Positions 1 to 17,694 of a stretch of DNA of 26,007 bases are shown here, piece by piece. The notes below the pieces were generated by a model. That model saw only the letters and a program-made list of their open reading frames with translations. It was not told the DNA's origin and searched no databases. The stretch lies in the IMG/VR virus record IMGVR_UViG_3300029781_000008, positions 1 through 26,007 of that record; one strand, written 5' to 3'. Source of the stretch: a virus. How positions within the stretch are numbered: the first letter of the stretch is position 1; every line of letters begins with the position of its first letter. A program made the translations under genes and the position numbers.

Positions 1-7
1 TGGATAA

Positions 8-15
8 TTATATAA
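8..15 (+). promoter_or_regulatory. Archaeal TATA box for the structural operon
   Basis: TTATATAA ends 23 nt before ATG 39, consistent with a leaderless or short-leader transcript. Confidence 0.6.
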
Positions 16-38
16 GAGAAATAAATTCACGGTCAATT

Positions 39-326
39 ATGGGAATCGGTAAGGTTGTTTCCCGGGCGGTCTCTCTTGTAAAGAGGGGCCGGGCGAAGGT
101 CCTGATGGTCATCGCTACCAGCGTGACCTTCCTTGTATCGAATGCGAGCGCAGCATCGATCAACTGGACGGAGATCAGCGACATCATCAATGGTGTCGCT
201 ACCAATCTGTTCCCGGCGTTCATAACGCTCATCACGGCTGCGGTCCCGATCATCATCGTGGTCTCAGTCGTGAGCTTCATCGTGATGTTCCTGGACAAGA
301 TCCTTGGCATGCTCAAGATGCGTTGA
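39..326 (+). CDS. Putative major coat protein, inovirus pVIII-like architecture (95 aa precursor, ~57 aa mature)
   Basis: Basic N-region, hydrophobic core and A-S-A cleavage motif, then acidic amphipathic helix (INWTEISDIINGV), TM (FITLITAAVPIIIVVSVVSFIVMF) and basic tail (KILGMLKMR). First gene after the TATA box. Confidence 0.65.
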   Translation: MGIGKVVSRAVSLVKRGRAKVLMVIATSVTFLVSNASAASINWTEISDIINGVATNLFPAFITLITAAVPIIIVVSVVSFIVMFLDKILGMLKMR

Positions 327-673
327 TGATCTCAAAAACCACACTTTTTTTCCTGATTGTTTGCCTGGTGTCGACTTCTACTATTATGTCCTCATCTGCT
401 CTTTCAATAAAGTTTCAGGACCAGAGTATGGCAGGGGCACAGAGTATCAATGTATACAGTATTGTCAATGGGACGCATCTCTATTCCGGGAATACAACAT
501 CTCAATTTACCACTGATGAAAGCGTTATAATCGCGATATCTCCGGAAAGGACTGATTATATCCGGAACCCATCTGCATTTCTCACAAACGTCAGTTCGTT
601 TGTGAGCGGGAACATGCTCGAAATTATGGTTCTTTGCTTTATTGCGGGAATGTTTCTTTTTTGGAGGAGATAA
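323..673 (+). CDS. Small secreted, C-terminally anchored virion/surface protein (116 aa), paralog of the C-terminal domain of the next gene
   Basis: Signal peptide; C-terminal TM plus WRR; TGA/ATG overlap with the coat gene; aligns by eye with the last ~90 aa of 676-1455. Confidence 0.8.
   Translation: MMISKTTLFFLIVCLVSTSTIMSSSALSIKFQDQSMAGAQSINVYSIVNGTHLYSGNTTSQFTTDESVIIAISPERTDYIRNPSAFLTNVSSFVSGNMLEIMVLCFIAGMFLFWRR
581..606. repeat. 26-bp interrupted palindrome, copy 1 (CTCACAAACG-TCAGTT-CGTTTGTGAG)
   Basis: Perfect 10-bp inverted arms around a 6-bp spacer; identical to 1360-1385. Confidence 0.97.
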
Positions 674-675
674 GA

Positions 676-1455
676 ATGATTTCATGGATAGGTCGCGTAT
701 TCCTAGTATTCTGCCTGGTAGTCACTTTAGTCCAAGGTAACATTAATAATGGTGATTTTGAAACCGGCGATCTTTCATCCTGGTATTACTCCGGTATGAT
801 TGAAACAAGCAGCCAATCTCATACGGGCAACTATGCGTGTTATTTTGAGGATACAGGACCTGCAACACTTAACCAAAGTGTCGATTTTTCTGGATTTGAT
901 GAACTGCATATCTGGATCTATGCTGATAATATCGGAAATGGAAATTGCATTATCCAAATAGACGGTAACAACATTGATACAATTGCGCCTTCTACTCCTT
1001 CTATTTATGAAGAACGAATAATTAACATATCGTTATATAATGGTCTTCATATTTTACAGTTTTATGGAGATGATGGCCAGTTCTTTATCCTGGATGATAT
1101 TATACTGGGATCAACGCCCACACCGACACCGACCACAACAACACCCACTCAAACACCTACAACAACACCAACAGCGAGCCTATATGTTCAAATGATTGAC
1201 AAAAGCATTGCCGGCCCGCAAAAAATAGATGCTTTCTCATTAACCAACGGAACTTACCTTTTTACGGCGGACACAAGCTCCGAATTTGGATTATATGAAA
1301 GTATAATCATCTACATTTCCCCGGATCCTATTGATTATGCTAGAAACCCTCATGCACTCCTCACAAACGTCAGTTCGTTTGTGAGTAGTAACATCCTGGA
1401 AATCTTTATCCTCTGCTTTATCGGGGGCTTATTCATATTCGGACGGAGGCGCTAG
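676..1455 (+). CDS. Anchored surface protein with N-terminal carbohydrate-binding-like (CBM4/9/CenC-like) domain, Thr/Pro linker and shared anchor domain (259 aa; start moved from 634 to ATG 676)
   Basis: Signal peptide; NGDFETGDLSSW motif; TPTPTPTTTTPTQTPTTTPT linker; C-terminal TM plus RRR; GGAGGAG upstream of ATG 676. Confidence 0.75.
   Translation: MISWIGRVFLVFCLVVTLVQGNINNGDFETGDLSSWYYSGMIETSSQSHTGNYACYFEDTGPATLNQSVDFSGFDELHIWIYADNIGNGNCIIQIDGNNIDTIAPSTPSIYEERIINISLYNGLHILQFYGDDGQFFILDDIILGSTPTPTPTTTTPTQTPTTTPTASLYVQMIDKSIAGPQKIDAFSLTNGTYLFTADTSSEFGLYESIIIYISPDPIDYARNPHALLTNVSSFVSSNILEIFILCFIGGLFIFGRRR
1114..1173 (+). repeat. Thr/Pro low-complexity linker coding sequence
   Basis: ACN/CCN-rich run encoding TPTPTPTTTTPTQTPTTTPT. 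Confidence 0.9.
1360..1385. repeat. 26-bp interrupted palindrome, copy 2
   Basis: Exact match to 581-606 in the same orientation and at the same codon position (LTNVSSFVS). Confidence 0.97.
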
Positions 1456-1457
1456 AA

Positions 1458-3494
1458 ATGAAGAGAATCATCGTATTAGCTTGCGTTATCTTATGTTTAC
1501 TGATCCCATCGGTACTTGCATCCAACTCCTCGTGTTTTGACATTAACCAGGAACAATCGGTTGTCAAAAAGTCATATATTACATCATATTCCGGTGTGGG
1601 CGACACAATGGGGAAACCCAACGTTTTCTATGTCCCAAGTATTGAAAAATGGGGAAAGATCCAGATTTACACGTTCAACGCAGCAAAACCCTACGCATTA
1701 AGTGGAAGCCCCGGACATGAAGAACAAGTCACCGTAAAAGATGGAGCGACAATAATTGCTCATGGATTTATTGGTTATTTGGACAATGGGCCCTCCTCGA
1801 TAACGATATACATGTATTTTGATGATTGGAATTCAACAGGGTTGACAGGAAACAAAGCCCTGACACTTGATTATACAAATGATATACTAGGGCTCTCTTT
1901 TGTCTATGCAGGAGCACATAATTATGGAAATGATCTGGGTTATCCCTTCATTTGCGCAGGGGGTTCAAATGCAAGACCCGCAATGGTAGGGACTTCCTTT
2001 GATCAAACTGTTTATGCTTCTATTTTCCACAATGAGCTATGCCATATTAGTCCAATAACCGGATCCGTGCATATCGACTTAACCCGATATTCCTATACAT
2101 CAAGACTAGCGGTATTCGCTGATGGAACCCAATGGTTTAATGAAAGCAGTAATACTGATTTAGACATCACGATCTTTGGATCCGTTGTTAAAGCGCATCT
2201 TTGGAATGCTGATTTAACCTATTATAAAGTCTTTGATATCTCACCAGGAGTGACCCCCACTCCAACCACTATAACCCCAACTGAAACGCCCACTCCAGCC
2301 CCTCAATTCTGTGGTTACTGGTCATTTGCAGTCAATTCAAGTAATATCATAAGGAACCAGTGGGTAAAAGGAACCCTAACAGAAACAGACCCGAGTGATA
2401 ATTTCCACAAGATCGATTGGTTCTGGATAACAACCTCTGGCGAAGAGGTAATGAAATATTCTTATGTGAACGACCCGGGATTCTTCGGCCTCGGGGCGGG
2501 CTGGGTAAGTGTCGATCCGATTCTTGGGACTGCAACATCCTCAAGTGTCGCAGCAGCAAAGGAAAACGATATTCAAATCCCCTACACCGGAAAACAATGG
2601 ATCCGGACAAAAATTTACAGGGATCAATCATTAATTCCCCTACTATATCACGATTATCAACTAATTTGCACGATGGACCAGGTTGTTTATGTCAGTGAGT
2701 CAACTCAGGGAACTAACACCCTAAACGTAAACGTGATTGATTCACTGACACGGGCGCAAATCGCAGGCGTAACGGTAAACGCTCAAAACAAGCTCACCGG
2801 CGAATGGCAAAACAAATCGACCCCGACCGGGGGAGCGATCCAATTCAATGTTATTCCAGGGAATGTTTACCGGTTCCTGGTGAACAATCCCCCATGGGAG
2901 CTGTATGATAAGGAATACACGATCCCCAACCCCCCGGGACTCTATGAAATCCTTTTGCGCCGGCCATTACCCGACACACCAGGGAAAAGTTGGATCCAGT
3001 TCACGGTTAAGGACGCAAGCACTACTCTTAACCTAAGGGCGGCCTCCATTACCCTTTCCGATGGACAAAGCAAAACGACACTTCCAAGCGGATACCAGGA
3101 CTTCCAGGTAAATAATAGCCAAGAATATTATTTCACGGTTTCAAAACAGGGTTATACATCCGCAACCGGTTCATTCAATATATCGGTCAATACCGAAAAA
3201 CTGGTTTATTTATATCCAAAAGTCCCGACCACAACCGCAACAACCGTCCCGGGATGGACTCAAACCCCGACCCCCGTTCAGACGTATCCAAATGGGACCC
3301 CGATTGACGTAACAACATCACCAACAGGTCTAGCCACTCTGGATGTTGTCCAGCGCCAGGCAAAAGTCAACGAGGGGATGGATATCTGGTATGAAGGATT
3401 CCCCATGCTGGCCCAATTGCTCTTTCTTTGCGCCATCATGGGCGCGTTTGGACTTATGGCATCATCGATGGGTGGCCGGAGGAAAAGCCGTTGA
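1458..3494 (+). CDS. Large adhesin/spike-like virion protein (678 aa), positional analog of inovirus pIII
   Basis: Signal peptide; two Thr/Pro linkers; two carboxypeptidase-regulatory/PEGA-like beta-sandwich repeats (LNVNVIDSLTRAQIAGVTV; IQFTVKDASTTLNLRAASITL...VSKQGY); C-terminal TM plus basic tail. Confidence 0.75.
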   Translation: MKRIIVLACVILCLLIPSVLASNSSCFDINQEQSVVKKSYITSYSGVGDTMGKPNVFYVPSIEKWGKIQIYTFNAAKPYALSGSPGHEEQVTVKDGATIIAHGFIGYLDNGPSSITIYMYFDDWNSTGLTGNKALTLDYTNDILGLSFVYAGAHNYGNDLGYPFICAGGSNARPAMVGTSFDQTVYASIFHNELCHISPITGSVHIDLTRYSYTSRLAVFADGTQWFNESSNTDLDITIFGSVVKAHLWNADLTYYKVFDISPGVTPTPTTITPTETPTPAPQFCGYWSFAVNSSNIIRNQWVKGTLTETDPSDNFHKIDWFWITTSGEEVMKYSYVNDPGFFGLGAGWVSVDPILGTATSSSVAAAKENDIQIPYTGKQWIRTKIYRDQSLIPLLYHDYQLICTMDQVVYVSESTQGTNTLNVNVIDSLTRAQIAGVTVNAQNKLTGEWQNKSTPTGGAIQFNVIPGNVYRFLVNNPPWELYDKEYTIPNPPGLYEILLRRPLPDTPGKSWIQFTVKDASTTLNLRAASITLSDGQSKTTLPSGYQDFQVNNSQEYYFTVSKQGYTSATGSFNISVNTEKLVYLYPKVPTTTATTVPGWTQTPTPVQTYPNGTPIDVTTSPTGLATLDVVQRQAKVNEGMDIWYEGFPMLAQLLFLCAIMGAFGLMASSMGGRRKSR

Positions 3495-4426
3495 GACCAA
3501 TTGAGATCCTCCCACTCTTAATGCTCCTGGTCCTCTTCATCGTCCCGGTCCATGCCGAGGACCTGTCTGCAATCAACCCAAACGTCGCACAAATGAAACT
3601 ATTTGTGGACCATGGGTCGTTCACCTATCGGGCTGCGGATGATGGATATCTCATCAGCAGGGTTGCCTGGATGGTCCTTCCTGGAGAGTCCGTCGACTTC
3701 ATACTCGAGTACAACGATGGGACAACCTCAACAGGATATATCCATACATCGACTACGTTCCTGGTCTGGAAGGACTGCTCTCTCTCCCTCAATGGCCAAA
3801 CGCAGACTTTATCAGGTGCATGGTTACCGGGGACTTACGATTATTATTATGTTTGCTATGCTGTTTCAAATGCGACACAGTCCCCATCATATTATCTCGT
3901 TCTGGTCAAGGACAGCGTCGGATTCGGCGGTGACCAGCCAAATTACGCGAATCCAAACCAGCCCCTGAAAGGGGATATCATCTTCAAGAAGGCCCTCTCG
4001 GCCTCTCCGAGCGATAACCCTATCATCCAGGTCACGGAGGAAACTGAATCACTGTCAGGGACAACCCTGGTCCTGGCCACGCTCGATGAGCTCTTTGCCA
4101 CGCAGGAAATGCATGAGAACATCAGCGGGAACTTCCTGTCCTGGATTATCTCCATCGGAGGGCAAGTATTCGGGATGCTCTCGTTTATTTGGGGGCTCTT
4201 TTACTTTCTATTTATCGAGAATTTCATGCTGACGTTCCTCTGTATTGAGATGGGGATTCTGGCCTACCGGCTCAATACTGCGAGGGACGTATTCATGGCC
4301 TTTTCCTTGATTCTCTCGGACAACGAGCGCCTTCTCCGGGGACTCGTCAGGTTTATTCAGCTGCTTGTGGATCTCGTGTGGAATATCATCAATGTTGTTA
4401 ACCCGATGAGGTGGCTGCGCCCATGA
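3491..4426 (+). CDS. Secreted ectodomain plus multi-helix hydrophobic C-terminus (311 aa; pVI-like position); TTG start
   Basis: TTGA overlap with the adhesin stop; signal peptide ending VHA; about three hydrophobic/amphipathic helices at the C-terminus. Confidence 0.7.
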   Translation: MRPIEILPLLMLLVLFIVPVHAEDLSAINPNVAQMKLFVDHGSFTYRAADDGYLISRVAWMVLPGESVDFILEYNDGTTSTGYIHTSTTFLVWKDCSLSLNGQTQTLSGAWLPGTYDYYYVCYAVSNATQSPSYYLVLVKDSVGFGGDQPNYANPNQPLKGDIIFKKALSASPSDNPIIQVTEETESLSGTTLVLATLDELFATQEMHENISGNFLSWIISIGGQVFGMLSFIWGLFYFLFIENFMLTFLCIEMGILAYRLNTARDVFMAFSLILSDNERLLRGLVRFIQLLVDLVWNIINVVNPMRWLRP

Positions 4427-4569
4427 TGAAAAAGGGGGTCTTTAGAAGCCTCTTCGGCCTGGCACTCTATGACCATGGTGAACGGGTCTACCTGGCCAGG
4501 GGAGAGTCTCCCCTGGTGGTCCTGCGGAAAATCGCACTATTCATCGCACAGAAATACCTCGGAGGCTGA
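4423..4569 (+). CDS. Small basic hypothetical protein (48 aa, MMKKGVFRSLFG...)
   Basis: Not in the ORF track; ATGA overlap with the upstream stop; fills the gap and contains the GGAGG for 4572. Confidence 0.6.
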   Translation: MMKKGVFRSLFGLALYDHGERVYLARGESPLVVLRKIALFIAQKYLGG

Positions 4570-4571
4570 TT

Positions 4572-4979
4572 ATGGGTCTTTTTGCAAAGTGGTTCCGGCC
4601 GAAACGTAATTTCCTAATCTGGTCACCGAAAATCAAGCAGTTCGAGCTCCAGAAACTCTCCTGGAGGCCAGGACTCGCCGAGGACACCTTTAACAAGCGT
4701 GCCTGGGAGTTGGCCCCGGACCTGGTGACGTATTCACTCAAGTTCGGTCGGAAAGTCATTAATTTCATCATCCTCGACGAGGAGCGGGGCGTTGGCCTGA
4801 ACGTCGAGCCTGATGAAGGCTTGCTAAAGCTGAAAACTAACACGGAGCTCTCCGGGCAGCTCATAGATGCCGTCATGATCACCACAGCCTACCAGCTCAG
4901 CCCAAGCAACAAAAAGGTCATAATCGCGGCTATTGTTGGATTGATGCTAGGCCTGCTCTTTGGGATGGGGATGCACTGA
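4572..4979 (+). CDS. Membrane protein with single C-terminal TM (135 aa)
   Basis: GGAGG RBS; TM VIIAAIVGLMLGLLFGMG. Confidence 0.8.
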   Translation: MGLFAKWFRPKRNFLIWSPKIKQFELQKLSWRPGLAEDTFNKRAWELAPDLVTYSLKFGRKVINFIILDEERGVGLNVEPDEGLLKLKTNTELSGQLIDAVMITTAYQLSPSNKKVIIAAIVGLMLGLLFGMGMH

Positions 4980-5401
4980 TGGCAGCAGTTGAAACCAGGG
5001 AGTCGATTGTTGTCCGACCTGGCGAAGACCGGGCCCTTACGAGGGTTGCACAGTTTGCGCCTGAGGTCCTGCGCCATAATGCAATCCTCAGGCTCATGGA
5101 AGGGCGGGCGACGCTGTCCCGGATTTCGAAAGAACAAATTATTCTGGAGTCATTAGTAGACTCAGCCGAGGAACTCGGCTATAAGCTGCCCGCCACAAAG
5201 GTCCTCATCCGCTCGGCTCGTGAGCTCTCCCCTGGCCTGGACGGGCTCGGGCGGGGCGAGGCGGTAAAGTGTTTGACGCCAACCCCGGCAAACGTCGGTA
5301 TGTTCCCTGCCAGCGCGTTTGCCCAGGAGGAGAAACCTGGGCTTTGGGCCAGGTTCCTGGCATTCGTGACCGGGGCCAGAAACAAGGATGGAGGTTCTTA
5401 A
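4979..5401 (+). CDS. Hypothetical protein of the assembly block (140 aa)
   Basis: TGATG overlap; C-terminal amphipathic helix LWARFLAFVTG. Confidence 0.75.
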   Translation: MAAVETRESIVVRPGEDRALTRVAQFAPEVLRHNAILRLMEGRATLSRISKEQIILESLVDSAEELGYKLPATKVLIRSARELSPGLDGLGRGEAVKCLTPTPANVGMFPASAFAQEEKPGLWARFLAFVTGARNKDGGS

Positions 5402-5402
5402 A

Positions 5403-5555
5403 ATGGACTACTTGACAATTTGGGCAACGGATTGTTTCAAATTTGGGCTCTTGATGCTCGTGATTGGGATTGGGTGCGGGATGCTCATTGGGTATGGCCT
5501 CGGAAAACTAATCGCTCCGCAAAGGCCCGATGCAGTGATGAGCTATGCCCGTTAG
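5403..5555 (+). CDS. Small single-TM protein (50 aa, MDYLTIWATD...)
   Basis: Not in the ORF track; GGAGG upstream; Gly-rich TM LLMLVIGIGCGMLIGYGLG. Confidence 0.65.
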   Translation: MDYLTIWATDCFKFGLLMLVIGIGCGMLIGYGLGKLIAPQRPDAVMSYAR

Positions 5556-5922
5556 AGATGGACTGAGCAGCCGGCTGTCCGGGATCCCGTCCCTGGTCGC
5601 ATTCGCCATGGTGACCAGGATCCAAAAGGCTGACATGACAATCTCCGCGAGGACAAATCTCGCGGTAAAGCTGTTCTCGCTACTTTGGGCCAAGTATCGA
5701 GATGATAAGGGGGTCTCCGCGACCCTGGATGAGATTGGTCTTGACCTACGCAATCTGAGGGAGAACTATGAAAATGTCGTTGATTTCGAGACATGGGCCG
5801 CCGAAAAACAGTCCCAATTCAACCAGTTCTTGGATGGGATCGAATATCGGCTTGACCGGGTGGTTGTGCTCACGAAGATCATAGACACCGCGAGCCTGCG
5901 GGACATGGCGGTGCCGGAATGA
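5545..5922 (+). CDS. Hypothetical helical protein (125 aa; start uncertain)
   Basis: Fills the operon gap; stop overlaps the ATPase start. Confidence 0.65.
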   Translation: MPVRDGLSSRLSGIPSLVAFAMVTRIQKADMTISARTNLAVKLFSLLWAKYRDDKGVSATLDEIGLDLRNLRENYENVVDFETWAAEKQSQFNQFLDGIEYRLDRVVVLTKIIDTASLRDMAVPE

Positions 5923-6848
5923 TGGGCGAGATTCTATATGAAGAAGAGCCCATCGAGGAGCCGGTCCAGCTGGATCCCGATGAGGACGAGGAGAAAAAGA
6001 TATATTCGCTCTTTGAGCGTGATTTCCTGAAAAAGCCTGGAGAGCACCTCCTTGGGATCGGGATTACCGGGTCCGGAAAAACCCAAAAGAGTTACTGGTT
6101 TGCTAAGCAGCTGTTGCCACATGAGACGCTCGTTTGGTTTGACTGCGGCAAATCGTCAAACTTCGGGCGGAGCGCAGAGATTGGGCCCCTCTTCACATTC
6201 GGGGTCCCGGTCAATATTATCATCCCGATGGGTGTAGATATCCAGGTTGTCGGGTCCCCGGTCCCGGTGACAATTCTCAAAACACCACGACCCGCTGATG
6301 TATGGGACCTCTGCGAGGCGGGGAAAATCAATATTGTGGCGATAAACCGGTTTTTCCTGGACCCGGATCTCTATGCAAAATACACCGCCGAAGTGTTCCG
6401 GCAACTGATTATCCTCTCCCAAAACGCGAAGGACCGGCTCCGGAGACTCCTCCCAATGGCAATTTTTCACGATGAGTTCCAGGATGTTTCCCCGGGCGTG
6501 ACGATGGCCCTTTCTCCATCGCACCTATACTCGGCAAAAATTGTCGCGTGGAACATTAACAAGCTCAGGTCAATCGGAGTCAGGGTCTGTGCATTTACGC
6601 AAAAATATACCTTTATTTATCCTAATACCAGGGCAGCTTTCAGCTGGATCCTCTGTTGCAGGGGTGCATATTTTGAGCGGGAGGACCCGGACCTGGCAGC
6701 CTTCAACCGCTTGTACAAGCACCTGGATGTGTTCCAAGCGATCCTGTGGTTCCCCAAGCGGCTATTCAAGCATCGCTGGCGGTTCAGGCTCTACCAGGGG
6801 CCTCCTGGCCTGGTCATCTCGCATGAAGGGGTCCTGACAAACGTTTGA
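5919..6848 (+). CDS. FtsK/HerA-superfamily P-loop ATPase (putative genome packaging/extrusion motor), no TM
   Basis: Walker A GITGSGKT (6060-6083), Walker B AIFHDE (DE at 6471-6476), Arg finger KLRSIG, sensor FTQ. Confidence 0.85.
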   Translation: MMGEILYEEEPIEEPVQLDPDEDEEKKIYSLFERDFLKKPGEHLLGIGITGSGKTQKSYWFAKQLLPHETLVWFDCGKSSNFGRSAEIGPLFTFGVPVNIIIPMGVDIQVVGSPVPVTILKTPRPADVWDLCEAGKINIVAINRFFLDPDLYAKYTAEVFRQLIILSQNAKDRLRRLLPMAIFHDEFQDVSPGVTMALSPSHLYSAKIVAWNINKLRSIGVRVCAFTQKYTFIYPNTRAAFSWILCCRGAYFEREDPDLAAFNRLYKHLDVFQAILWFPKRLFKHRWRFRLYQGPPGLVISHEGVLTNV

Positions 6849-7093
6849 CCAGGTCCCGGTCAGGGGTCCTGGCCAGGATCCTGTATGGTCTCCCCGCACT
6901 CAGTACACCACCACCCGACCGGCACGAACCGGCCACGTGCACCACCTACCCGGACATATGCCCTGGTCATGGGTGCACCACATTTCGGGTGGGGACATCG
7001 CGTAGCTCTCAGGCGGGGCATGGTATGTATACATTACCCCTGGAAAAGAAAAGCATTTTGCGCTTTGATTGCTCAAGGAGAATTCATACCTGA
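6845..7093 (+). CDS. Small Cys/His-containing hypothetical protein (82 aa, TTG start)
   Basis: TTGA overlap with the ATPase stop matches the coupling pattern of the operon; the competing frame 6885-7151 cannot be excluded. Confidence 0.4.
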   Translation: MTRSRSGVLARILYGLPALSTPPPDRHEPATCTTYPDICPGHGCTTFRVGTSRSSQAGHGMYTLPLEKKSILRFDCSRRIHT

Positions 7094-7175
7094 ACATGGC
7101 TTTAAACCCTGGCACTATAACCTCTTCCCCGGCGTGGTGAACCAGGCTTAAGAGCCACGACAACAATCCTTTTAC

Positions 7176-8423
7176 ATGGCGTTCCATCCCAACATAAGTA
7201 TCCGCTCCCGCGAAAGCTCTTTCTCAAAACATCGGGCGAGCGGCCTGATTTCTGAGGATGATGAGGCTTTAATCAGGGAATACGTTGCGGAATACCATGC
7301 CCGCAGGCAGGTGAAGGAGCACAGAATCCAGAAGACCGTGGTCGACCTGATCCAGTGGAGGAGGTTCCTGGTCGTTCCTTTCCGGGAGGCCACAATCCAA
7401 AATATCTATACGGCCGTTTCCAGGCTCGATACCGAGCCGTCGATGACCGGGAGGCCCCATAAGCAGAATACCAAGCACGACAAGATACAGGCCCTCCGTC
7501 GCTTCATGTTATGGCTCATCCAGCGTGGGATCTCCACCGTGGACCCGGAGAGGATCCGGGAGATCCGGGTCCCCGAACGGGATCGGTATACCACTCGGCC
7601 AGAGGACCTGGTCACCCCGGACGAGGTCAGGCAGATGATGGAGGCCTGCAAGCGGTCCCGCTATCCCACGAGGGACCGGGCTATTATTGTCACACAATAC
7701 GAGAGCATGGCTAGGATTGGAGAGATCGGCCGGTTGACCTGGTCATCCCTGAAATTTGACGAACACGGGGTGATGATGACCATCACCGATGAGAAGACTA
7801 AGAAGCTGCGATACGTCCGGCTGGTAATGGCCACGGAGTACCTGCAGAGGCACCTGGAGGAGAGCCAAGCCAGGGGGCATGTTGAAGGCCTGGTCTTCCT
7901 CTCGGAGCGCGGCCACCCGATGACATACCCTGATTTCGAATCCATGTATAAGCGGGCCGCTAAAAGGGCTGGAATTAAGAAGCGGGTCCACTCTCACCTG
8001 ATGAGAAAGTCCCGGATTACTGAGCTGATGAAGAAGCGCCGGCAGGAATCTATCATCAAAAAAATGGCATGGGGCAACGTCACCACGAGGGAATGGGAGA
8101 CATATGCGGTACTGTGCTCCCAGGACATAGACGATGAGGTCCTGGACATGTACGGGATCCGGAAGATCCAGGACGCCGAATCGGACCCACTAGCCCCGAT
8201 CCAATGTGAGAAGTGCCTCGTGATCAATCCCCCAACAGCCTGGTTCTGCATTCGGTGCCGGGCTCCCCTCACCGACCAGGCCAAAGCGTCAATCCAGGAT
8301 AAGGAGGACCTGGCGAGACAGGATCCCCTTTATCAAAAACTGCTGGAGAGGCAAAACAAGATGATGCAGGACCTGGCGCGGGAAATGGGGTTGGACCCGG
8401 ACAAGGTTTCAGTCCTCACTTAA
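7176..8423 (+). CDS. int: Tyrosine recombinase/integrase with C-terminal double zinc ribbon (SNJ2-like architecture)
   Basis: Catalytic set: R (ESMARIGE, 7713), K (DEKT), HxxR (HLMR, 7995-8006), W (MAWG), Y (ETYA, 8103). CEKC...CIRC ribbon. Confidence 0.93.
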   Translation: MAFHPNISIRSRESSFSKHRASGLISEDDEALIREYVAEYHARRQVKEHRIQKTVVDLIQWRRFLVVPFREATIQNIYTAVSRLDTEPSMTGRPHKQNTKHDKIQALRRFMLWLIQRGISTVDPERIREIRVPERDRYTTRPEDLVTPDEVRQMMEACKRSRYPTRDRAIIVTQYESMARIGEIGRLTWSSLKFDEHGVMMTITDEKTKKLRYVRLVMATEYLQRHLEESQARGHVEGLVFLSERGHPMTYPDFESMYKRAAKRAGIKKRVHSHLMRKSRITELMKKRRQESIIKKMAWGNVTTREWETYAVLCSQDIDDEVLDMYGIRKIQDAESDPLAPIQCEKCLVINPPTAWFCIRCRAPLTDQAKASIQDKEDLARQDPLYQKLLERQNKMMQDLAREMGLDPDKVSVLT

Positions 8424-8430
8424 TACTATT

Positions 8431-8676
8431 TTAGTCTTCGAAAGCCCTTCGGATCAATCTCTTTCCCTCATCACTCTCCAGGAATGCACGGATTTGTTGG
8501 TCCACAGTCCGGCGAAAAAAGAACTCTCTTAGCGCGGCCTCAACCACTGATGTGTTATTCGGAAATTCCCCAGACTTAACGGCATTATCGATTTGATCCA
8601 GGATACCTTGTGTTAACTTGTATCCTGTTTGTCTTTTCGGTTTCCCCCCGATAATTGCCATGATTTTAGGTTTCAT
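8431..8676 (-). CDS. Ribbon-helix-helix transcription regulator (81 aa from ATG 8676, or 76 aa from ATG 8661)
   Basis: RQTGYKLTQGILDQIDNAVKSGEFPNNTSVVEAALREFF fits the CopG/NikR-type RHH pattern; the longer 8898 start would overlap the opposite RHH gene. Confidence 0.8.
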   Translation of the reverse strand: MKPKIMAIIGGKPKRQTGYKLTQGILDQIDNAVKSGEFPNNTSVVEAALREFFFRRTVDQQIRAFLESDEGKRLIRRAFED

Positions 8677-8760
8677 TTTATTATATTTAGAGAGACGTAA
8701 ATCTCTAGTTGTGCTAAAGAGATACATATATAACACCTTTTGTATATCTCTAGTTGTACC
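8677..8760. promoter_or_regulatory. Divergent promoter/operator region
   Basis: TATATAA at 8727-8733 (27 nt before ATG 8761); 12-bp direct repeat ATCTCTAGTTGT at 8701-8712 and 8746-8757; inverted AGAGATA 8718-8724 / TATCTCT 8745-8751; AT-rich TATA-like block near 8680-8688 for the - gene. Confidence 0.7.
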
Positions 8761-8928
8761 ATGAAACCCAAACTTCGGCGGATCATCATTGGGATCCCGG
8801 AGCCCCAGCTTGCAAAGCTGGACCAGCTCATCGAACAGGGCATTTATCCGGGCCGCAACGAGGCGGTCCGGGACGGCATCCGAGGCCTCATCAAGCAATA
8901 TGAGACCGCGACCCCCTGTCCTGCATGA
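8761..8928 (+). CDS. Ribbon-helix-helix transcription regulator (55 aa)
   Basis: RRIIIGIPEPQLAKLDQLIEQGIYPGRNEAVRDGIRGLI; ATG 8761 sits at leaderless distance from the TATA box. Confidence 0.85.
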   Translation: MKPKLRRIIIGIPEPQLAKLDQLIEQGIYPGRNEAVRDGIRGLIKQYETATPCPA

Positions 8929-8976
8929 ACTGTCGATAACTCAGTACCGCATGTGACCATTCTGTGGTGATCAACC

Positions 8977-9111
8977 ATGATCAAAAATCAGGAAATTACC
9001 CGACAGGAACTGGAACATTTGAGCCCTCTCGCTCAAATGGTGTGGAAAATCAGAATCGAACAGGGAAAAGCAACTCTTTTGGAGGATTCAACATGCAGTG
9101 CAGTTGTATAG
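8977..9111 (+). CDS. Small hypothetical protein (44 aa, MIKNQEITRQELEHLSPLAQMVWKIRIEQGKA...)
   Basis: Not in the ORF track; archaeal SD GGTGAT at 8966-8971. Confidence 0.55.
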   Translation: MIKNQEITRQELEHLSPLAQMVWKIRIEQGKATLLEDSTCSAVV

Positions 9112-9362
9112 ACGCCGTCCCCACCCATTCCAACGATGCCAATCCTGGGAACGAAGCGGGGAACGGCGATCATGTATCGCAATCAATCGAGAAAAATGCA
9201 GCTGAAACGGCTTTCCGTCCCTCAGCGAAGGCATGCACTGATGCCAAGTGCCAGGACCTGGTCCTGGTATTCGGTTTCAGGCGGAACCACAAGGAATGCG
9301 GGATCATGAACAGGATCCCGGGGAACATGGCCTCCTGCCCGAAACGAGAGGGATCGCAATGA
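9093..9362 (+). CDS. Cys-containing hypothetical protein (89 aa; start moved from 8964)
   Basis: GGAGG 7 nt before ATG 9093; C-terminal CTDAKC...C...C pattern. Confidence 0.55.
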   Translation: MQCSCIDAVPTHSNDANPGNEAGNGDHVSQSIEKNAAETAFRPSAKACTDAKCQDLVLVFGFRRNHKECGIMNRIPGNMASCPKREGSQ

Positions 9363-9676
9363 TGCCCCTTGCTCAGCAGGCCCCTATCACCGACGAACCG
9401 CCCGCCAAACAGAAAGCCTATCCAAAATTCAGCCACCTTTTCCTGAACCTAAAACTCCCTGGGAGATGGATCCGCATCGACCAGATCACCAGTGTCAGGA
9501 TTGAGCGCATAGACCCGGACGGTCCCCGGCCATCGTTCTACCGTGTGAGGGTGAACGAGTATGATACCATCGATGAGGTCCCTACCATTGAAGAAGCCGA
9601 GGCCATTGCCGAGCGGGTCATGTTTGCCGTGTCCACCCGGCTGACCGCGGTCTTGGGATCCTGGAGGAGGTCCTGA
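9359..9676 (+). CDS. Hypothetical protein (105 aa)
   Basis: ATGA overlap with the upstream stop; ordered alpha/beta-like sequence. Confidence 0.7.
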   Translation: MMPLAQQAPITDEPPAKQKAYPKFSHLFLNLKLPGRWIRIDQITSVRIERIDPDGPRPSFYRVRVNEYDTIDEVPTIEEAEAIAERVMFAVSTRLTAVLGSWRRS

Positions 9677-10599
9677 TGTCCCATCATGATATCTTCCGGT
9701 GCAACTACCCGCCCTGCGAAAAGGAGTCAGAAGAGCCCTTCCGGGACGGGTGGGTCCATTTCAACTGCCTGGATGATGGGAATTCCCTCATGCTCGGAGA
9801 CCGGACCCTCCTCGCAAACCTGGAGGACACGCACTTCTGCTCTGTCAAGTGTCTCATGCATTACTTGAACGGCTTCCTCAAGAGCGCAAGCCCGCTCTTG
9901 AGCAAAGCGGTGAATAACACCATCCCGAAGCTGGGCCGAGGGTCCAGGGCAGAATACAATTGGATCAAGGACTGCCCTACTCTTACCCAATGCTTGTCCG
10001 GATTCAGGGACCGGTATCCTGGCAGGAAGAACGTAACAGACTCAGACCTCTCTGCTATCTGGAACCACTATCACCCGGACCAGGAAGAGGTTATCGAGGA
10101 GGGATCGGACTACTCAGACAAGGAACTGGCAGTCCTATATGCGCATGAATCCCATCGGGATGCATGGGCAGCCTATACCTCTGCATTCCCAGGCTCTAAG
10201 CGGAAGCGGTCCTCAATTAAGATCAAGTGGCTCAGGAATTGGGAGTCCACCGAAGGGAAGCGTCGAGCAAAAGAACTCAGGTCCAGGGAGAGTGTCCAGG
10301 AGAATGAAACCCCGCCAAGCTCTCAAAACATCGACGAACCGGCGCCAAATCAAGGAGCGCCACATCAAGAATCCTCGGGACTCTTTGTTGGCGCAAAGGT
10401 TCTCCAGGTCAAAGGAAAAAACAGGGCATACGGGGTTGGAGAAGTCCTGGAAATCCGCATGAATGGCGATGTGGTCGCCCAATTCTACGGGTCCAGGAAG
10501 GTCCTGTCCCAGGACCATTTTGAACTCTATGTCCCTGGAAGGGCAACATCACAGGGAACCGCAGACCAGGCAGCTACTGCGGGAGGTGGACAATCGTGA
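9676..10599 (+). CDS. Multidomain protein: TRASH/MYM-like Zn finger, helical Myb/SANT-like region, C-terminal Tudor/KOW-like barrel (307 aa)
   Basis: CNYPPC...HFCSVKC; YSDKELAVL...KRKRSSIKIKWLR; LFVGAKV...YGVGEVLEI...VVAQF. GGAGG RBS and TGATG overlap. Confidence 0.7.
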   Translation: MSHHDIFRCNYPPCEKESEEPFRDGWVHFNCLDDGNSLMLGDRTLLANLEDTHFCSVKCLMHYLNGFLKSASPLLSKAVNNTIPKLGRGSRAEYNWIKDCPTLTQCLSGFRDRYPGRKNVTDSDLSAIWNHYHPDQEEVIEEGSDYSDKELAVLYAHESHRDAWAAYTSAFPGSKRKRSSIKIKWLRNWESTEGKRRAKELRSRESVQENETPPSSQNIDEPAPNQGAPHQESSGLFVGAKVLQVKGKNRAYGVGEVLEIRMNGDVVAQFYGSRKVLSQDHFELYVPGRATSQGTADQAATAGGGQS

Positions 10600-10946
10600 A
10601 GAGAATTGCGGTTTGCCCCCCGGAGGATATTTGCCCTGTCTGCGGATGCTCAGACCTGGTCCTGCACTGGAACAAGACATATAAAAGGTACAATTGGGAG
10701 TGCCAGAAAGAGAACCATTTCTACATTCCAGCGGAGACTGTTGAAATCAACCCTATTTTGCTGCCCGCCGAGGAGGACCTCGTCGGGATCACTGCTGACA
10801 GCCGATGCTGGACATGCCTCCAGTTCTACCGGTGCCGGCCGAGGATCTCCGGCCTTCCAGGGGTCACCCTGGAGAAATGCGAGGGATATATGCCTGGACT
10901 TGATGTGCGGATTGCGCCGTCTCTCAAGCTCAGGGGGCGGTCCTGA
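10596..10946 (+). CDS. Cys-rich Zn-ribbon protein (116 aa, GTG start)
   Basis: CPVCGC...WECQKENH and CWTC...C...C; GTGA overlap. Confidence 0.7.
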   Translation: MKRIAVCPPEDICPVCGCSDLVLHWNKTYKRYNWECQKENHFYIPAETVEINPILLPAEEDLVGITADSRCWTCLQFYRCRPRISGLPGVTLEKCEGYMPGLDVRIAPSLKLRGRS

Positions 10947-11050
10947 TGGAGACACTCCCCTGCAGGATCCTGGGATACCTCGACCCCTGCAAGGACTGCC
11001 CTCGGGAGGATGACGACTGTCCTTATGAGTCCGAGGAGGCCTCCTCATGA
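10946..11050 (+). CDS. Tiny acidic Cys-rich peptide (34 aa, METLPCRILGYLDPCKDCPREDDDCPYESEEASS)
   Basis: Coupled by TGATG upstream and ATGA downstream; contains the GAGGAGG RBS for 11047. Confidence 0.5.
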   Translation: METLPCRILGYLDPCKDCPREDDDCPYESEEASS

Positions 11051-11337
11051 CCACCCTCAGGGATTATACTTCCATCGAGGAGGACCTGCCTGGTGACCAC
11101 CCCGATCCCCTCCTCCAGGAGACCCTATACCGGGCAGGCCAAACGGTCTGGTGGATCCCCTCTGACGGCAGCCGTCCGGCCATCATGACCAGGACACAGC
11201 GGATGCTCCCGGCGGTCGTAAAGTCCTACAACTCGCAGCAACGGACCTGTCTCATCGAGCACCAGGACGTCACCCGGACCACATATTCTTTCCTTGTCCA
11301 GGCCTCGGAGCTCACTCGGCGGGAGATCCCGAGGTGA
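11047..11337 (+). CDS. Small SH3/Tudor-like beta-barrel protein (96 aa)
   Basis: YRAGQTVWW...LPAVVKSY...CLIEH...FLVQASEL pattern. Confidence 0.65.
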   Translation: MTTLRDYTSIEEDLPGDHPDPLLQETLYRAGQTVWWIPSDGSRPAIMTRTQRMLPAVVKSYNSQQRTCLIEHQDVTRTTYSFLVQASELTRREIPR

Positions 11338-11344
11338 CCTTGAT

Positions 11345-11704
11345 ATGGCCCTTGAGATGTGCAAAACTTATACAGACCTGGTGCATCGGATAGGCTGGTA
11401 CCTCGGGTCTGAGGTGATGCCGCAGTTCATCCGACGGATCCAGGAACATGGAACAGCCTGGTGTTATTATGGCTCCCTCCTAAGCGACGGCCGGCCAGTC
11501 GTGAGAGTTTTGCAAGCCTACAAACTGCAATCAAATGGATACGTGCTGCGGGACCGGACCTATACGAGGGATCCTGACTGGAATTGGGTGAAGACAGTCC
11601 TTGATCCGGATGAGATCTTCCGGACCGCCCTCGAGCTTAGGAATTCACTTCGGCCAGTACCCGTCCCCATGTACGCCCGGCCGGACGTACCATCGGGGGA
11701 GTGA
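11345..11704 (+). CDS. Hypothetical protein (119 aa; start moved from 11294)
   Basis: GAGGTGA RBS before ATG 11345; stop overlaps the GTG of the next gene. Confidence 0.7.
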   Translation: MALEMCKTYTDLVHRIGWYLGSEVMPQFIRRIQEHGTAWCYYGSLLSDGRPVVRVLQAYKLQSNGYVLRDRTYTRDPDWNWVKTVLDPDEIFRTALELRNSLRPVPVPMYARPDVPSGE

Positions 11705-12648
11705 CCCTGATGCTCCCCGACGGTATTATTGAGCCATCCGCTGACTCACCCATCGGTTTCACATCGGACGTTTTTACGGGCGTTTTATTCGCACGTGGAC
11801 GGGACCTCTGGATCGGCAGGATATCCGTGCTGCCCTCCAAGCAGGATCAGGGCTATTTCACCCGGCTCCTCGCGGTGCTGATGTGGTTGGGGTACCGGGT
11901 CCGGGTCGCCTACCCGTCCCAGATCATGCGCCAAATCCTGGAGCGCCGGGGGTTCAGGATGGCCAGGACTTCCTGCTCTCGGGGCTCATGTCCCTACATG
12001 GAGCTTCCCGACCCCGCAACACTCTCCACAAGAGCCAGGGGGAAATATAACGGGGCCCGCATGGAGGCCCTCTTCGCCTGCAAGAACTCCAAGAATATTT
12101 TTGATGACATGCGGAACAACGTCGAGCTCAAATCGTGCCAGGAGTACGCTGTCACCAATCATTCGAACGGCACAAGGAGACTCGGCCGGTTCCAGTTCAG
12201 GAAGCACCAGCACGAGGCGCTGCTCTTCGTGGATGGGAGTTACCGGCTCATCGTCCAGGACGGCCAGGGGACTGTACTCCTCCATAGAGTTGTCAAGGCC
12301 CGGGAGATTGATCAGCACCTGGTCAAAATGACCAGGGACACCTATCAGCGGTCCTGGCGGGCGTTTTTCCCCGGTCCCCCCAAGCAAGATGGGGGGGCAG
12401 GCAGTGACAGGACCCCCCTCGAGTACCAGATCGACCCTGCCTTGATGGTCCAGGGCATCAGCCGGGAATGCACCATGGAGATCCAGGACCTGGTCCGGGC
12501 CAGGTCCATCGGGATCCACAACGTCCCGAACAGCGGGCAGTACCTGCGGGTCCTGGTCGAACGTGATGCTCAGGGCACCTACTATGTCACCCCGGCCCCT
12601 AAGGCCAGGGATACCCCCTTGTTCCTCCAGGAGAGTGTGCCGGCATGA
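11701..12648 (+). CDS. Protein with N-terminal minimal GNAT-like acetyltransferase domain and uncharacterised C-terminus (315 aa)
   Basis: WIGRISVLPSKQDQGYFTRLL (motif A-like) and MRQILERRGF (motif B-like); GTGA overlap. Confidence 0.55.
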   Translation: MTLMLPDGIIEPSADSPIGFTSDVFTGVLFARGRDLWIGRISVLPSKQDQGYFTRLLAVLMWLGYRVRVAYPSQIMRQILERRGFRMARTSCSRGSCPYMELPDPATLSTRARGKYNGARMEALFACKNSKNIFDDMRNNVELKSCQEYAVTNHSNGTRRLGRFQFRKHQHEALLFVDGSYRLIVQDGQGTVLLHRVVKAREIDQHLVKMTRDTYQRSWRAFFPGPPKQDGGAGSDRTPLEYQIDPALMVQGISRECTMEIQDLVRARSIGIHNVPNSGQYLRVLVERDAQGTYYVTPAPKARDTPLFLQESVPA

Positions 12649-12908
12649 GCGCGTCTGCTGCACTATTTGACCACCGGATCTCGTTCCAGGACATGGACTC
12701 GATGTGCCTGCTCCATATCGCCCAGCTCCTCGAACTCCAGGCATACGGGACCCACTACGTGATGAACAGGAAGGAGAGGTTGTGCATCCGGATCGAGCGC
12801 TGGCCGGACGAAAACTGGCCTGATGGTGAAATATATGTCAGGCTCCTGGATGTACCGAAGTCACCACTATTCCGGAGGGGGTCCCCCTGCTGCATGCCAG
12901 GATCGTGA
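12645..12908 (+). CDS. Hypothetical protein (87 aa)
   Basis: ATGA overlap with the upstream gene. Confidence 0.6.
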   Translation: MSASAALFDHRISFQDMDSMCLLHIAQLLELQAYGTHYVMNRKERLCIRIERWPDENWPDGEIYVRLLDVPKSPLFRRGSPCCMPGS

Positions 12909-13060
12909 TGGAACCAGTGGAGCGTCGGGACACCCTCCTGGAGGCCTCCAAGGTGGCGATGGCGAAAGGAGACCGAATCCGGGCGAAGTGCCTCGCCAGG
13001 GACGCCCGGATTATCTGCTACCTGTACGATCTCCCGATCCCGGCAGGGGAGGCCTCGTGA
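12908..13060 (+). CDS. Small helical protein (50 aa, MEPVERRDTLLEASKVAMAKGDRIRAKC...)
   Basis: Not in the ORF track; TGATG overlap upstream and GTGA overlap with the helicase start. Confidence 0.6.
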   Translation: MEPVERRDTLLEASKVAMAKGDRIRAKCLARDARIICYLYDLPIPAGEAS

Positions 13061-15186
13061 CGAACGGGACAGGGGCCGCAGGACCGTTTTCCCCGGCAAT
13101 CGCCGATATCGTGAGGTCCGCTCCGGAGGCAACGCTGCAGATGTGGGCGGAAGCTCTGAGAAAGAGGGACATCCCGGTGCCGCCCCCGCCCTCGAGCTCG
13201 GCCGAGGAGCTCCGGGAGTGGCTGGCCACAGTCCTCCCTCAGCACTGGTCCCTCCTGCAGCAGCAGGCACCGGTTGACCAGGTTGAACACGAGCATTCCG
13301 TGCACCAGCAGATCCGGGAGATAGGGGATACCTACCAGGTCCTCAAGTACCTGGAAGATTATGGCCTGAAAATCCGGGGATACGACCTCCTCAGTGAAGA
13401 GGAGGTCCGGAAGGCATGCATGGACTACCTGCAGACCGACAAGTTCCTGCAGGCATGGGACCGGGCCCGGTCCCAGGACCGGGAGGAAGCTGATAAACAG
13501 AGCCTGGCCCGGCGCGCCATCTACGTGACCGGGAAACGACTCCGGGACCAGACTCAGCAGGCGCTGGATACCCTCCTGGAGGCTAATCAACCCCCCCACA
13601 TATTCGCCCGGGTCGGGCAGCTGATCCGGATCCAGAAAGACGAGTACGGGATCCCCTACATCCAGTACCTGGACCGGTATGGTGTCCGGCATGTCCTGGA
13701 GCGGTGCGCCGAGTTCTGGAGGACCCGCCGTGACGGGGACCATGTCGAGATCCCCCCACCGATGGACGTTGTCGAGGACCTCATGGCCCTCCCGGAGATC
13801 CCGCTACCGCCCCTCGTGGCCATCATCGAGGCGCCGGTCATCCTGGAGGATAATACCCTCCTGGACCGGCGGGGCTACGACCCGAGGACCGGGTTGTATT
13901 ATTACCCTCACCAGGGCGTCGAGGTAGCAATCCCGGACCAACCAACAGCGACGGACATCAGGGAGGCGGTTGAGTTGCTGCAGGAGATATTCTGCGATTT
14001 TCCATTTGACAGCGATGCATCGCGGGCCAACACCTTCGGGGCCCTGCTGTCAGCCGTCCTCAGGCCGATGATCCGGGGCTGCGTCCCCATGGTCCTCCTG
14101 GACAAACCGCAGGCGGGGACCGGCGCGAGCTTGATTGCAGATGTCCTCTCCATGGTTGCCTGCGGGCGGGCTGGTGCAAAAACGACCGCCCCACACGAGG
14201 AAAAAGAATGGAAGAAAACTATTACGAGCATCCTGCGGTCAGGCCAGACCGTGGTCACCGTGGACAACATCGAGGGAAAGTTGTTCAGCCCATCCCTGGC
14301 CGCCGTCCTCACCATGGAGATATGGCAGGACCGGGCCCTTGGAGGGAACGATTGGGTTACCTGCCGAAACGTGACGGTCTGGATCGGGACCGGGAACAAC
14401 ATCACCCTCGGGGGGGATATGCCCCGGCGGTGCTATTGGGTCCGGATGGACGCTGAGCATGCGAGGCCCTGGCAGCGGACCGGATACCGGCACCCGGACC
14501 TGCTGGCATGGGTCCAGCAGGAGCGAGGGAGGATCCTCTCGGCGGTCCTGTCCCTGGCAAGGGCCTGGATCCTGGCCGGCCGGCCGGGACCGAAAGCCTG
14601 TCCCCTCGTCGGTAGCTATGAGAACTGGAGGTTCACCATCGCCGGGATCCTGGAGTTCGCCGGCATCGAAGGGTTCCTCGGGAACCTGGAGGCGATGTAC
14701 GAGGAGGCTGATACCGATACTCCACAGTGGGAAATGTTCTTGGAAAAATGGTATTCTATCTGGCATGACAACCCGAAGCTCGTTGCCGAGGTGCATGAAC
14801 ACCTTCAGCGGGAGGTATCATCCACATCACCCGACTATAGCCAGGGGGACCGGCTCATCGACAGCCTCCCGGACTACCTAATGGATGCCTGGACCCGCAA
14901 AAAATCATTTACCCGGGTCCTGGGAAACGCACTCAAGTCAAGGAGTGGGCGCCTGTTCCCTAATGGACTGCGGGTCCAGCGGTTTGGGATGGAGCATAAA
15001 TTACTACTTTGGAGGATAACCAGGATGTCCGACACAACCCTACAAGGGGGGTTTGGGGTGTTAGGGGGGTCTCCCTGTACACCCCCTAAGGGCGTTTCCA
15101 GTGGAAATATAGGTACTATTGTACCTGGTGATGAGCCACCGAAACCCCCTGAACACCCCAAACCCCCCGAAGGTGATCACCCATGA
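13057..15186 (+). CDS. D5/P4-primase-associated SF3-like helicase/replication protein (709 aa; GTG start) with non-canonical Walker A
   Basis: D5_N-like GYDPRTGLYY; Walker A-like DKPQAGTGAS; Walker B VDN; motif C GTGNN; DMPRR Arg finger; GGGGAGG RBS before GTG 13057. Confidence 0.8.
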   Translation: MTNGTGAAGPFSPAIADIVRSAPEATLQMWAEALRKRDIPVPPPPSSSAEELREWLATVLPQHWSLLQQQAPVDQVEHEHSVHQQIREIGDTYQVLKYLEDYGLKIRGYDLLSEEEVRKACMDYLQTDKFLQAWDRARSQDREEADKQSLARRAIYVTGKRLRDQTQQALDTLLEANQPPHIFARVGQLIRIQKDEYGIPYIQYLDRYGVRHVLERCAEFWRTRRDGDHVEIPPPMDVVEDLMALPEIPLPPLVAIIEAPVILEDNTLLDRRGYDPRTGLYYYPHQGVEVAIPDQPTATDIREAVELLQEIFCDFPFDSDASRANTFGALLSAVLRPMIRGCVPMVLLDKPQAGTGASLIADVLSMVACGRAGAKTTAPHEEKEWKKTITSILRSGQTVVTVDNIEGKLFSPSLAAVLTMEIWQDRALGGNDWVTCRNVTVWIGTGNNITLGGDMPRRCYWVRMDAEHARPWQRTGYRHPDLLAWVQQERGRILSAVLSLARAWILAGRPGPKACPLVGSYENWRFTIAGILEFAGIEGFLGNLEAMYEEADTDTPQWEMFLEKWYSIWHDNPKLVAEVHEHLQREVSSTSPDYSQGDRLIDSLPDYLMDAWTRKKSFTRVLGNALKSRSGRLFPNGLRVQRFGMEHKLLLWRITRMSDTTLQGGFGVLGGSPCTPPKGVSSGNIGTIVPGDEPPKPPEHPKPPEGDHP
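15046..15168. repeat. Nested inverted-repeat cluster (candidate replication origin)
   Basis: Perfect 17-bp IR 15046-15062/15152-15168 enclosing TTAGGGGG/CCCCCTAA, TTTCCA-G-TGGAAA and AGGTAC-TATT-GTACCT. Confidence 0.85.
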
Positions 15187-15443
15187 CCCTGGACCCTCTC
15201 ATCCTGCAGGGAATGGGGGTGGCCACCGGGCTGGCCGGCATGGCCGCGGTCACCTCCCCGGTGGCCATCACCCGGACCAGGGCATTCGCATGCTGGATCC
15301 TGTCCAACTTCTTCCTGCTCGGGTGGGCAGCTGCAGCCGGGGAGGTCCTCCTCGGGATCCTGTATGCCATCTACCTGGCCCTCTCCACTGCAGGACTGGT
15401 CAGGTCCTGGAAGTCAACATCGAATATAGGAGGCACAACATGA
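15183..15443 (+). CDS. Small 3-TM membrane protein (86 aa; weak resemblance to PnuC/PQ-loop half-transporters)
   Basis: Three hydrophobic helices; FACWILSN motif; ATGA overlap; GGTGAT RBS. Confidence 0.65.
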   Translation: MTLDPLILQGMGVATGLAGMAAVTSPVAITRTRAFACWILSNFFLLGWAAAAGEVLLGILYAIYLALSTAGLVRSWKSTSNIGGTT

Positions 15444-15610
15444 ATTGGGGATGGAAGCAGGAGGTCGCTTTTTGGGCCTTCTTGGTAATCATGGTATTTA
15501 CTATTGTATTTTTAGTTTGGTTCCTTGGAAATTTAATGATGGATTTGTTAATTCATGCACCTATTCCTGATTTCAAAAATGTAACCTCATTATTGGAGTG
15601 TGGCACATGA
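15440..15610 (+). CDS. Small single-TM protein (56 aa, MNWGWKQEVAFW...)
   Basis: AGGAGG RBS; ATGA overlap; long hydrophobic helix. Confidence 0.6.
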   Translation: MNWGWKQEVAFWAFLVIMVFTIVFLVWFLGNLMMDLLIHAPIPDFKNVTSLLECGT

Positions 15611-15759
15611 CACCGAACGAAGTTTTCTCAAAAGTTCATTCCTGCGATAATCTCATGGAACCGAAAAAGCGGCATGTACTGAAGTCACTAGGCATCCTCC
15701 TGGTCGGTATCATCATTGGGTATGCGTTCTACTATGTCCGGTTTCGGTATCTGCTCTGA
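15607..15759 (+). CDS. Small single-TM protein (50 aa, MTPNEVFSK...)
   Basis: ATGA overlap; TM LGILLVGIIIGYAFYYV. Confidence 0.5.
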   Translation: MTPNEVFSKVHSCDNLMEPKKRHVLKSLGILLVGIIIGYAFYYVRFRYLL

Positions 15760-15791
15760 AATTATTCCCAGGAACCCCCTAGAATTTCTCC

Positions 15792-15798
15792 TTTTTTT
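15792..15798 (+). terminator. Oligo-T archaeal terminator candidate between convergent operons
   Basis: T7 run 33 nt after the last + stop. Confidence 0.4.
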
Positions 15799-15851
15799 AG
15801 TCCTGGCCATGGCTACTATAAATGCTATGTTTTGGCTCCAGGTCCTGGTCG

Positions 15852-16438: not shown

Positions 16439-16462
16439 GTCAGTACATAAAAAAGAGAATAG

Positions 16463-16472
16463 TATATATATA
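16463..16472. promoter_or_regulatory. Symmetric TATA box, possibly bidirectional
   Basis: TATATATATA lies 24 nt from ATG 16438 (-) and 27 nt from ATG 16500 (+); the purine-rich BRE-like flank favours the + direction. Confidence 0.55.
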
Positions 16473-16499
16473 GCAAGAAACTATGTGGTTGGTGTAGAG

Positions 16500-17348: not shown

Positions 17349-17349
17349 A

Positions 17350-17688: not shown

Positions 17689-17694
17689 CTATTT

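Follow-up and report, generated by a model that had tools for sequence, protein, structure and literature searches.

A 26-bp palindrome is repeated, identical to the base, in two diverged and adjacent surface-protein genes of a circular virus-like element, and is probably a cis-acting site that is read by its sequence, as DNA, by a symmetric dimeric protein, with purifying selection at the nucleotide level holding both copies of a lineage-specific tandem duplication. The window, i.e. the whole stretch of 26,007 nt that was analysed, contains the 26-mer CTCACAAACG-TCAGTT-CGTTTGTGAG on the + strand at positions 581-606 and 1360-1385, with perfect 10-bp arms around an asymmetric 6-bp spacer (10-6-10). 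The two copies are in direct orientation, 779 bp apart, and both start at codon phase 0 and encode the peptide LTNVSSFVS; the repeat, its coordinates and its phase had been reported in a first-pass annotation of this DNA and were verified here. The geometry and the codon phase are direct observations, as is the nucleotide-level conservation described below; from these we infer the binding of a protein and, further on, recombination and the identity of the acting enzyme. The features of the operon are as follows.

39..326, + strand: small membrane protein of 95 aa, head of the operon, kept upstream of gene A in relatives
326-673, + strand: gene A, 115 aa, with a signal peptide, a beta domain, a juxtamembrane helix, a C-terminal transmembrane helix and RR
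581..606, + strand: copy 1 of the palindrome (10-6-10), codons 86-94 of gene A
676-1455, + strand: gene B, 259 aa, with a signal peptide, a CBM/MAM-like jelly-roll, a Thr/Pro linker, a gene A-like beta domain, a helix and an anchor
1360..1385, + strand: copy 2 of the palindrome, identical to copy 1, codons 229-237 of gene B
1458..3494, + strand: gene C, 678 aa, anchored and adhesin-like, directly after gene A in relatives

Outside the palindrome, genes A and B are only 55.6% identical in nucleotide sequence over their 92 shared codons, and third positions are identical in 29.8% of these codons, which is near random. Identical residues are encoded by the same codon in 14 of 41 cases outside the palindrome versus all eight whole codons inside it, in agreement with the earlier statement that all third positions are identical within the repeat; the synonymous differences that had been pointed out in neighbouring codons (CTC/CTG and ATT/ATC) are likewise there, downstream of the palindromes. 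Since the base immediately 5′ of the palindrome differs between the copies (T/C), as does the base immediately 3′ (C/T, at the third position of the ninth codon), the identical run coincides with the palindrome to the base, and the next longest identical runs between both genes are of 7-8 nt. An identical run of at least 26 nt appeared in 20 of 200,000 codon-column shuffles, and the probability of eight identical codons, given the same residues and the local codon usage, is 2.8e-5, so that overall chance estimates range from about 1e-4 to 3e-5. The identity of the two palindromes is a confirmed, solid and statistically unusual observation.

In the left arm, the synonymous positions are 3, 6 and 9, and their pairing partners in the right arm (24, 21 and 18) are synonymous positions too; compensatory change is therefore free at the protein level. 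By enumeration, 384 synonymous spellings of the peptide (16 stems x 24 loops) keep a perfect 10-6-10 palindrome, and 1944 keep the hairpin when G-U pairs are allowed. Both copies share one and the same spelling, and they also agree at two spacer positions that are free to vary, indicating that the sequence itself is constrained, and not the fold alone; this points to sequence recognition and to matched spacers, such as recombination partners need. Additionally, the peptide encoded at this spot is among the more variable stretches in 20 orthologues, and a protein-level constraint thus does not explain the conservation of the nucleotides.

In the window, there is no third copy of the 26-mer with up to three mismatches (chance expectation, 0) and no inverted copy, and the only further half-site with up to one mismatch is at position 6834. 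Scans of viral and JGI metagenome contigs with the exact and the spacer-free palindrome patterns yielded no match, in sets that may omit records close to the window. Both copies are present in each of 10 loci from independent assemblies made with different assemblers, which shows that the pair is not an assembly artefact. At the DNA level, the hairpin of copy 1 scores -9.3 kcal/mol (z -5.4), and the stem of copy 2 can be extended by three extra pairs beyond one mismatch (1356-1389). Two other classes of palindromic elements were considered and rejected: a protelomerase target, since the 6 bp in the centre lack self-complementarity, and a mobile in-frame palindromic repeat of the REP/RAYT or RPE-like kind, because there is no gain in length with respect to 20 orthologues and there are only two copies.

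Positions 1-16476 of the window correspond to a 16,484-bp circular element that was found, always with both copies of the palindrome, in more than 24 assemblies. The sequencing runs in which it occurs include ERR1414216, ERR1414218-20, ERR1823510 and ERR12256840, besides JGI samples. Its circularity is read directly from contigs of 16.5-16.6 kb that are circular permutations of this sequence, with a terminal overlap equal to the k of the assembler. The fetched contigs are about 100% identical across the palindrome region, each with both copies, and gene B is upstream of gene C in 12 out of the 12 contigs read. From 16449 to 26007, the window is part of another element; in other contigs, the genes upstream of it are not the same. 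Two features of the circular element are relevant to what follows.

7176..8423, + strand: tyrosine integrase (PF00589, E 3.3e-24) with a C-terminal RanBP-type zinc ribbon
16449..16476, no strand assigned: AT-rich core of 28 nt, probably for attachment; its sequence has no relation to that of the palindrome

The circle, the junction in the window and an empty site of a second element, one that has tail-fibre-like genes, have the 28-nt core in common (window, 16418-16510; contigs L003:8670-8760, L025:1479-1571 and L027:761-853), with the crossover lying inside the core. This set looks like an attP/attB/attR trio, as if a mobile element had inserted itself into the genome of another virus-like element; an assembly chimera is less likely. 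The claim that the element encodes a tyrosine recombinase is borne out by the integrase, which is the sole recombinase found in it, lies 5.8 kb from the palindromes and seems to use its own 28-nt core. It shows weak matches to XerD and XerA, with the HxxR motif aligned, and its relatives include proteins from metagenome-assembled genomes (MAGs) of Methanoregulaceae (35-42% identity) and, at 80% identity, the integrase of related element L031; one scan against genome contigs returned a Clostridium match only. A zinc ribbon (here PF00641, E 8.8e-6) is an uncommon feature in a tyrosine recombinase, and the 80%-identical copy in the L031 MAG contig is truncated and adjoins a transposase. The best named matches of the helicase are from a virus assigned to Methanosarcinales and from a Methanothrix plasmid. 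Plasmid pGP6 of Methanothrix was discarded as a relative, having the helicase in common and not the structural genes, and a tblastn comparison of the structural genes of the window with a GenBank collection of phages and archaeal viruses gave no match.

The model of gene A obtained from the family alignment (pLDDT 88) comprises a signal helix, a small five-strand beta domain and a transmembrane helix, with the palindrome-encoded peptide contained in a helix at residues 82-95; a fold search with this model returned no significant match. Members of the gene A family are proteins of roughly 110-150 aa. Gene callers place the start of gene A differently on identical DNA, giving products of 81, 95 or 115 aa, and only the 115-aa form has a signal peptide like that of the orthologues. 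The N-terminal domain of gene B resembles CBM_4_9/DUF642/MAM domains at the level of a lead (Pfam E 0.015), with structure matches of TM 0.78-0.84 by query; the single-sequence fold of the whole protein (pLDDT 40) is too low for use. Protein searches with gene B retrieved a single match, of 25% identity, to the N-terminal domain, and no relatives of gene B were found in viral contigs. The C-terminal part of gene B is a paralogue of the last 92 residues of gene A (54% amino-acid identity), and both domains are sisters in the tree (99/96), with a branch four times longer for B. Together with the weak likeness of the two signal peptides (E 0.036), this sister placement suggests that the duplication was local and old and that copy B gained the CBM head. 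The extra divergence of gene B is confined to the beta domain, and the tails of A and B score about alike, both against the whole set of orthologues and against the two closest. The GC content is 39-42% from gene A, through gene B, to the middle of gene C (400-2400) and 56-64% in the replication module (10800-14800), and the surface-protein genes may have a different history or codon regime from the replication module.

Seven related loci (L013, L014, L015, L020, L021, L023 and L031) have the order small membrane protein, one gene A orthologue, large adhesin. Gene B is absent from all the related elements fetched, including these seven, and neither the palindrome nor a comparable hairpin was found at the homologous codons of the seven elements. 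The absence of the site from single-copy relatives is as expected if it matters only together with the duplicated module. Five elements (L020, L021, L023, L024 and L031) form an undescribed group, to which the circular element belongs, with a conserved module that combines the small membrane protein and the gene A family with a large anchored adhesin and a multi-TM protein, together with small genes and a gene of about 310-370 aa, which has a Walker-A motif in L031. Within this group, L023 and L024 contain a serine resolvase in place of the tyrosine integrase, and L020 contains several DNA methyltransferases. Another palindrome, perfect and of 31 nt (15-nt arms and one central base), is identical in L020 (9223-9253), L021 (4569-4599) and L023 (9488-9518); in L020 and L023 it is situated in an intergenic gap, just downstream of the small gene that follows the 318-aa gene (309 aa in the window counterpart), and it may be an origin or a regulatory site of this virus group. 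L031 has a perfect 10-8-10 palindrome inside the start of the adhesin-like gene (2665-2692), GC-rich and in single copy, which may be due to chance.

What kind of site the 26-mer might be is less clear than its conservation. The likeliest single mechanism, itself still doubtful and almost level with a site for some other dimeric protein, is that the 26-mer serves as a simple core site for a tyrosine recombinase of the Xer/Cre type. Sites of this kind have arms of about 9-14 bp and an asymmetric overlap of 6-8 bp, and the 10-6-10 layout with a spacer that is not self-complementary conforms to it; to this extent, the first-pass annotation was right in recognizing the layout of dif and loxP sites, which XerA sites also have. 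The two 10-bp arms would be bound by the recombinase and would flank a 6-bp overlap region, and the spacers match between both copies, including the two free synonymous positions, as is found in partner sites. The direct copies would then bracket the following unit, which could be excised or re-inserted in frame and carries the carbohydrate-binding head of gene B.

607..1385, + strand: putative excisable unit of 779 bp, from coordinates and codon phases, comprising the tail and stop of gene A and gene B through its palindrome

Both palindromes being at codon phase 0, a crossover would leave an in-frame hybrid, gene A with the tail of gene B. Of the earlier proposal that a crossover deletes the CBM gene in frame, the geometry is allowed by the coordinates and the phase, and the product was not seen: there was no deletion junction or hybrid A/B in 24 contigs with gene B and 12 with gene C, all of them assembled contigs from which rare products could escape, and none was listed in profile and single-sequence searches of a collection of 5.8 billion protein clusters, where the 90% clusters held only start-codon variants of gene A and one single sequence of gene B.

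In favor of the recombinase site are the 26/26 identity amid flanks of 55.6%, with the run ending at the ends of the palindrome, and the circular 16,484-bp replicon that encodes a tyrosine recombinase. Against it, active direct sites should lose the intervening segment, yet the pair has outlasted the saturation of synonymous sites; the integrase has a different core of 28 nt and is 5.8 kb away, with no second recombinase; the sites are direct and have no further copy in the element; no product turned up; and the contigs, about 100% identical, show no variation in the population. Recombination would need to be an infrequent or strictly regulated event, and the acting enzyme might be the XerA of the host instead of the integrase of the element. 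The excision switch is a hypothesis that is possible by its geometry and for which the evidence is mixed. Its fullest form, namely an archaeal virus-like element with an in-frame promoterless cassette between two recombinase core sites, whose excision and re-insertion would toggle a carbohydrate-binding head while the anchored proteins stay complete, in an integron- or shufflon-like manner with direct sites, appears rather unlikely. The adhesin cassette or host-range switch put forward in the annotation has found no direct support, and two of the three findings that the annotation itself had listed as speaking against it (no palindrome in homologous genes, no deletion products, no protein binding) were made, as the palindrome is absent from the orthologues in seven elements and no deletion or hybrid was detected among the assembled contigs and in the protein collection.

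A perfect dyad whose sequence is conserved, spacer included, and a stable pair with no deletion forms would also fit a non-recombining site for another dimeric DNA-binding protein, such as an intragenic pair of operators that forms a loop or blocks transcription in the virion operon, or a site for partition or for packaging, inherited from the gene that preceded the duplication and needed at both places. The auxiliary operators lacO2 and galOI, as well as parS sites, occur within coding regions. We regard this as a tentative explanation, hardly behind the recombinase site; however, perfect arms of 10 bp, in a site of 26 bp, exceed the usual length in operators, no partner site exists at the operon promoter or elsewhere in the window, no DNA-binding, ParA or ParB family is recognizable among the small ORFs, and the orthologous operons of seven relatives do without the site. 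The conservation could also be a passive relic, a functionless palindrome that appeared by chance in one copy and reached the other through a tiny patch of gene conversion, which was the fallback of the annotation. Tandem paralogues often convert one another, inverted repeats with perfect 10-bp arms occur in this element with some frequency (five sites in 16.5 kb), the orthologues lack the palindrome, and no product or further copy was found. Nevertheless, the flanks are diverged by around 45% and have no run longer than 8 nt in which a heteroduplex could start or be resolved, the ends of the tract would have to coincide exactly with those of the palindrome, an older tract would have gathered synonymous changes as the flanks did, and a tract of 26 nt taken at random would be a 10-6-10 palindrome with a probability of about 1e-6. 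The flanking homology and the ends unrelated to any motif that are expected of a conversion tract are both missing, and this explanation is weak and, in our opinion, unlikely.

More improbable still is that the palindrome acts as RNA, with a hairpin in the polycistronic mRNA that would serve each gene separately, for instance through pausing, processing or a stability effect that sets the protein ratios. The stem is stable in the minimum-energy fold, where that of copy 1 is present, folding of 66-nt windows around the palindromes gives z values of -2.1 and -4.1, and each copy is situated about 70 nt upstream of the ribosome-binding site of the following gene. However, the structure would permit the 1944 spellings mentioned above, with G-U, paired and loop changes, and none that differs was seen; there is zero variation between the copies, and so neither compensatory nor wobble changes, and the orthologues have no hairpin at the homologous spot. 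There is also no Rfam match, T-run terminator or slippery site, and cleavage within an ORF would give mRNAs lacking a stop codon.

If functional, the palindrome would be a rare and clear example of a DNA signal superimposed on a protein code, in which three arm pairs connect synonymous positions with one another and no free position differs between the copies, with the other synonymous sites near random. If it recombines, it would constitute the first cassette system of surface proteins with in-frame direct repeats in an archaeal virus, and a route to study host-range change in the viruses of methanogens, which are hardly known.

Taken as a recombinase core site, the palindrome resembles the dif sites of XerCD and XerA and the loxP site of Cre in its inverted arms of around 10-13 bp and its asymmetric spacer of 6-8 bp that is identical in partner sites (PMC2958812, PMC8371274). 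The layout of dif and XerA sites is 11-6-11, and archaeal XerA requires no accessory factor in vitro (PMC2958812, PMC8371274). The replicon that carries the palindrome is also circular and would need multimer resolution, as in dif/XerA systems. Unlike dif and loxP, it is placed in frame within coding sequence, in two direct copies 779 bp apart, and no product was seen.

In the shufflon of plasmid R64 (Rci/sfx), recombinase sites lie inside paralogous adhesin genes and protein parts are swapped in frame. In the archaeal viruses phiCh1 and phiH1, a tyrosine recombinase switches between paralogous adhesin genes; the invertible tail-fibre region of these viruses, on which Int1 acts, is similar to our case in that the sites are inside such genes and a crossover swaps parts of the proteins in frame (PMC6210493). 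In-frame sites within paralogous adhesin-like genes are also what genes A and B contain. In both phiCh1/phiH1 and R64, inverted sites flank a segment that can invert, the recombinase gene lies between these sites or next to them, and populations contain both arrangements, whereas the window has direct sites, no adjacent recombinase gene, the integrase being 5.8 kb away, and one arrangement only. To our knowledge, the known adhesin switches work with inverted sites.

Phage 21 and e14 are integrative elements that insert at icd and bring a replacement 3′ end for their target gene. The window shares with them a duplicated, synonymously diverged gene end that adjoins an identical core repeat, and the 779-bp unit is formally equivalent to an insert with a new tail for gene A; it differs in that the domains of genes A and B are sisters, which fits a local duplication, in that the unit is devoid of its own recombinase and in that the tails show no swap. 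If the palindrome is instead a site for another dimeric protein, it is longer than usual in comparison with lacO2, galOI and the Spo0J parS sites and, in the window, has neither a promoter partner site nor a recognizable cognate protein; what it has in common with them is that a palindromic site, the binding being putative here, is conserved at the nucleotide level within coding DNA.
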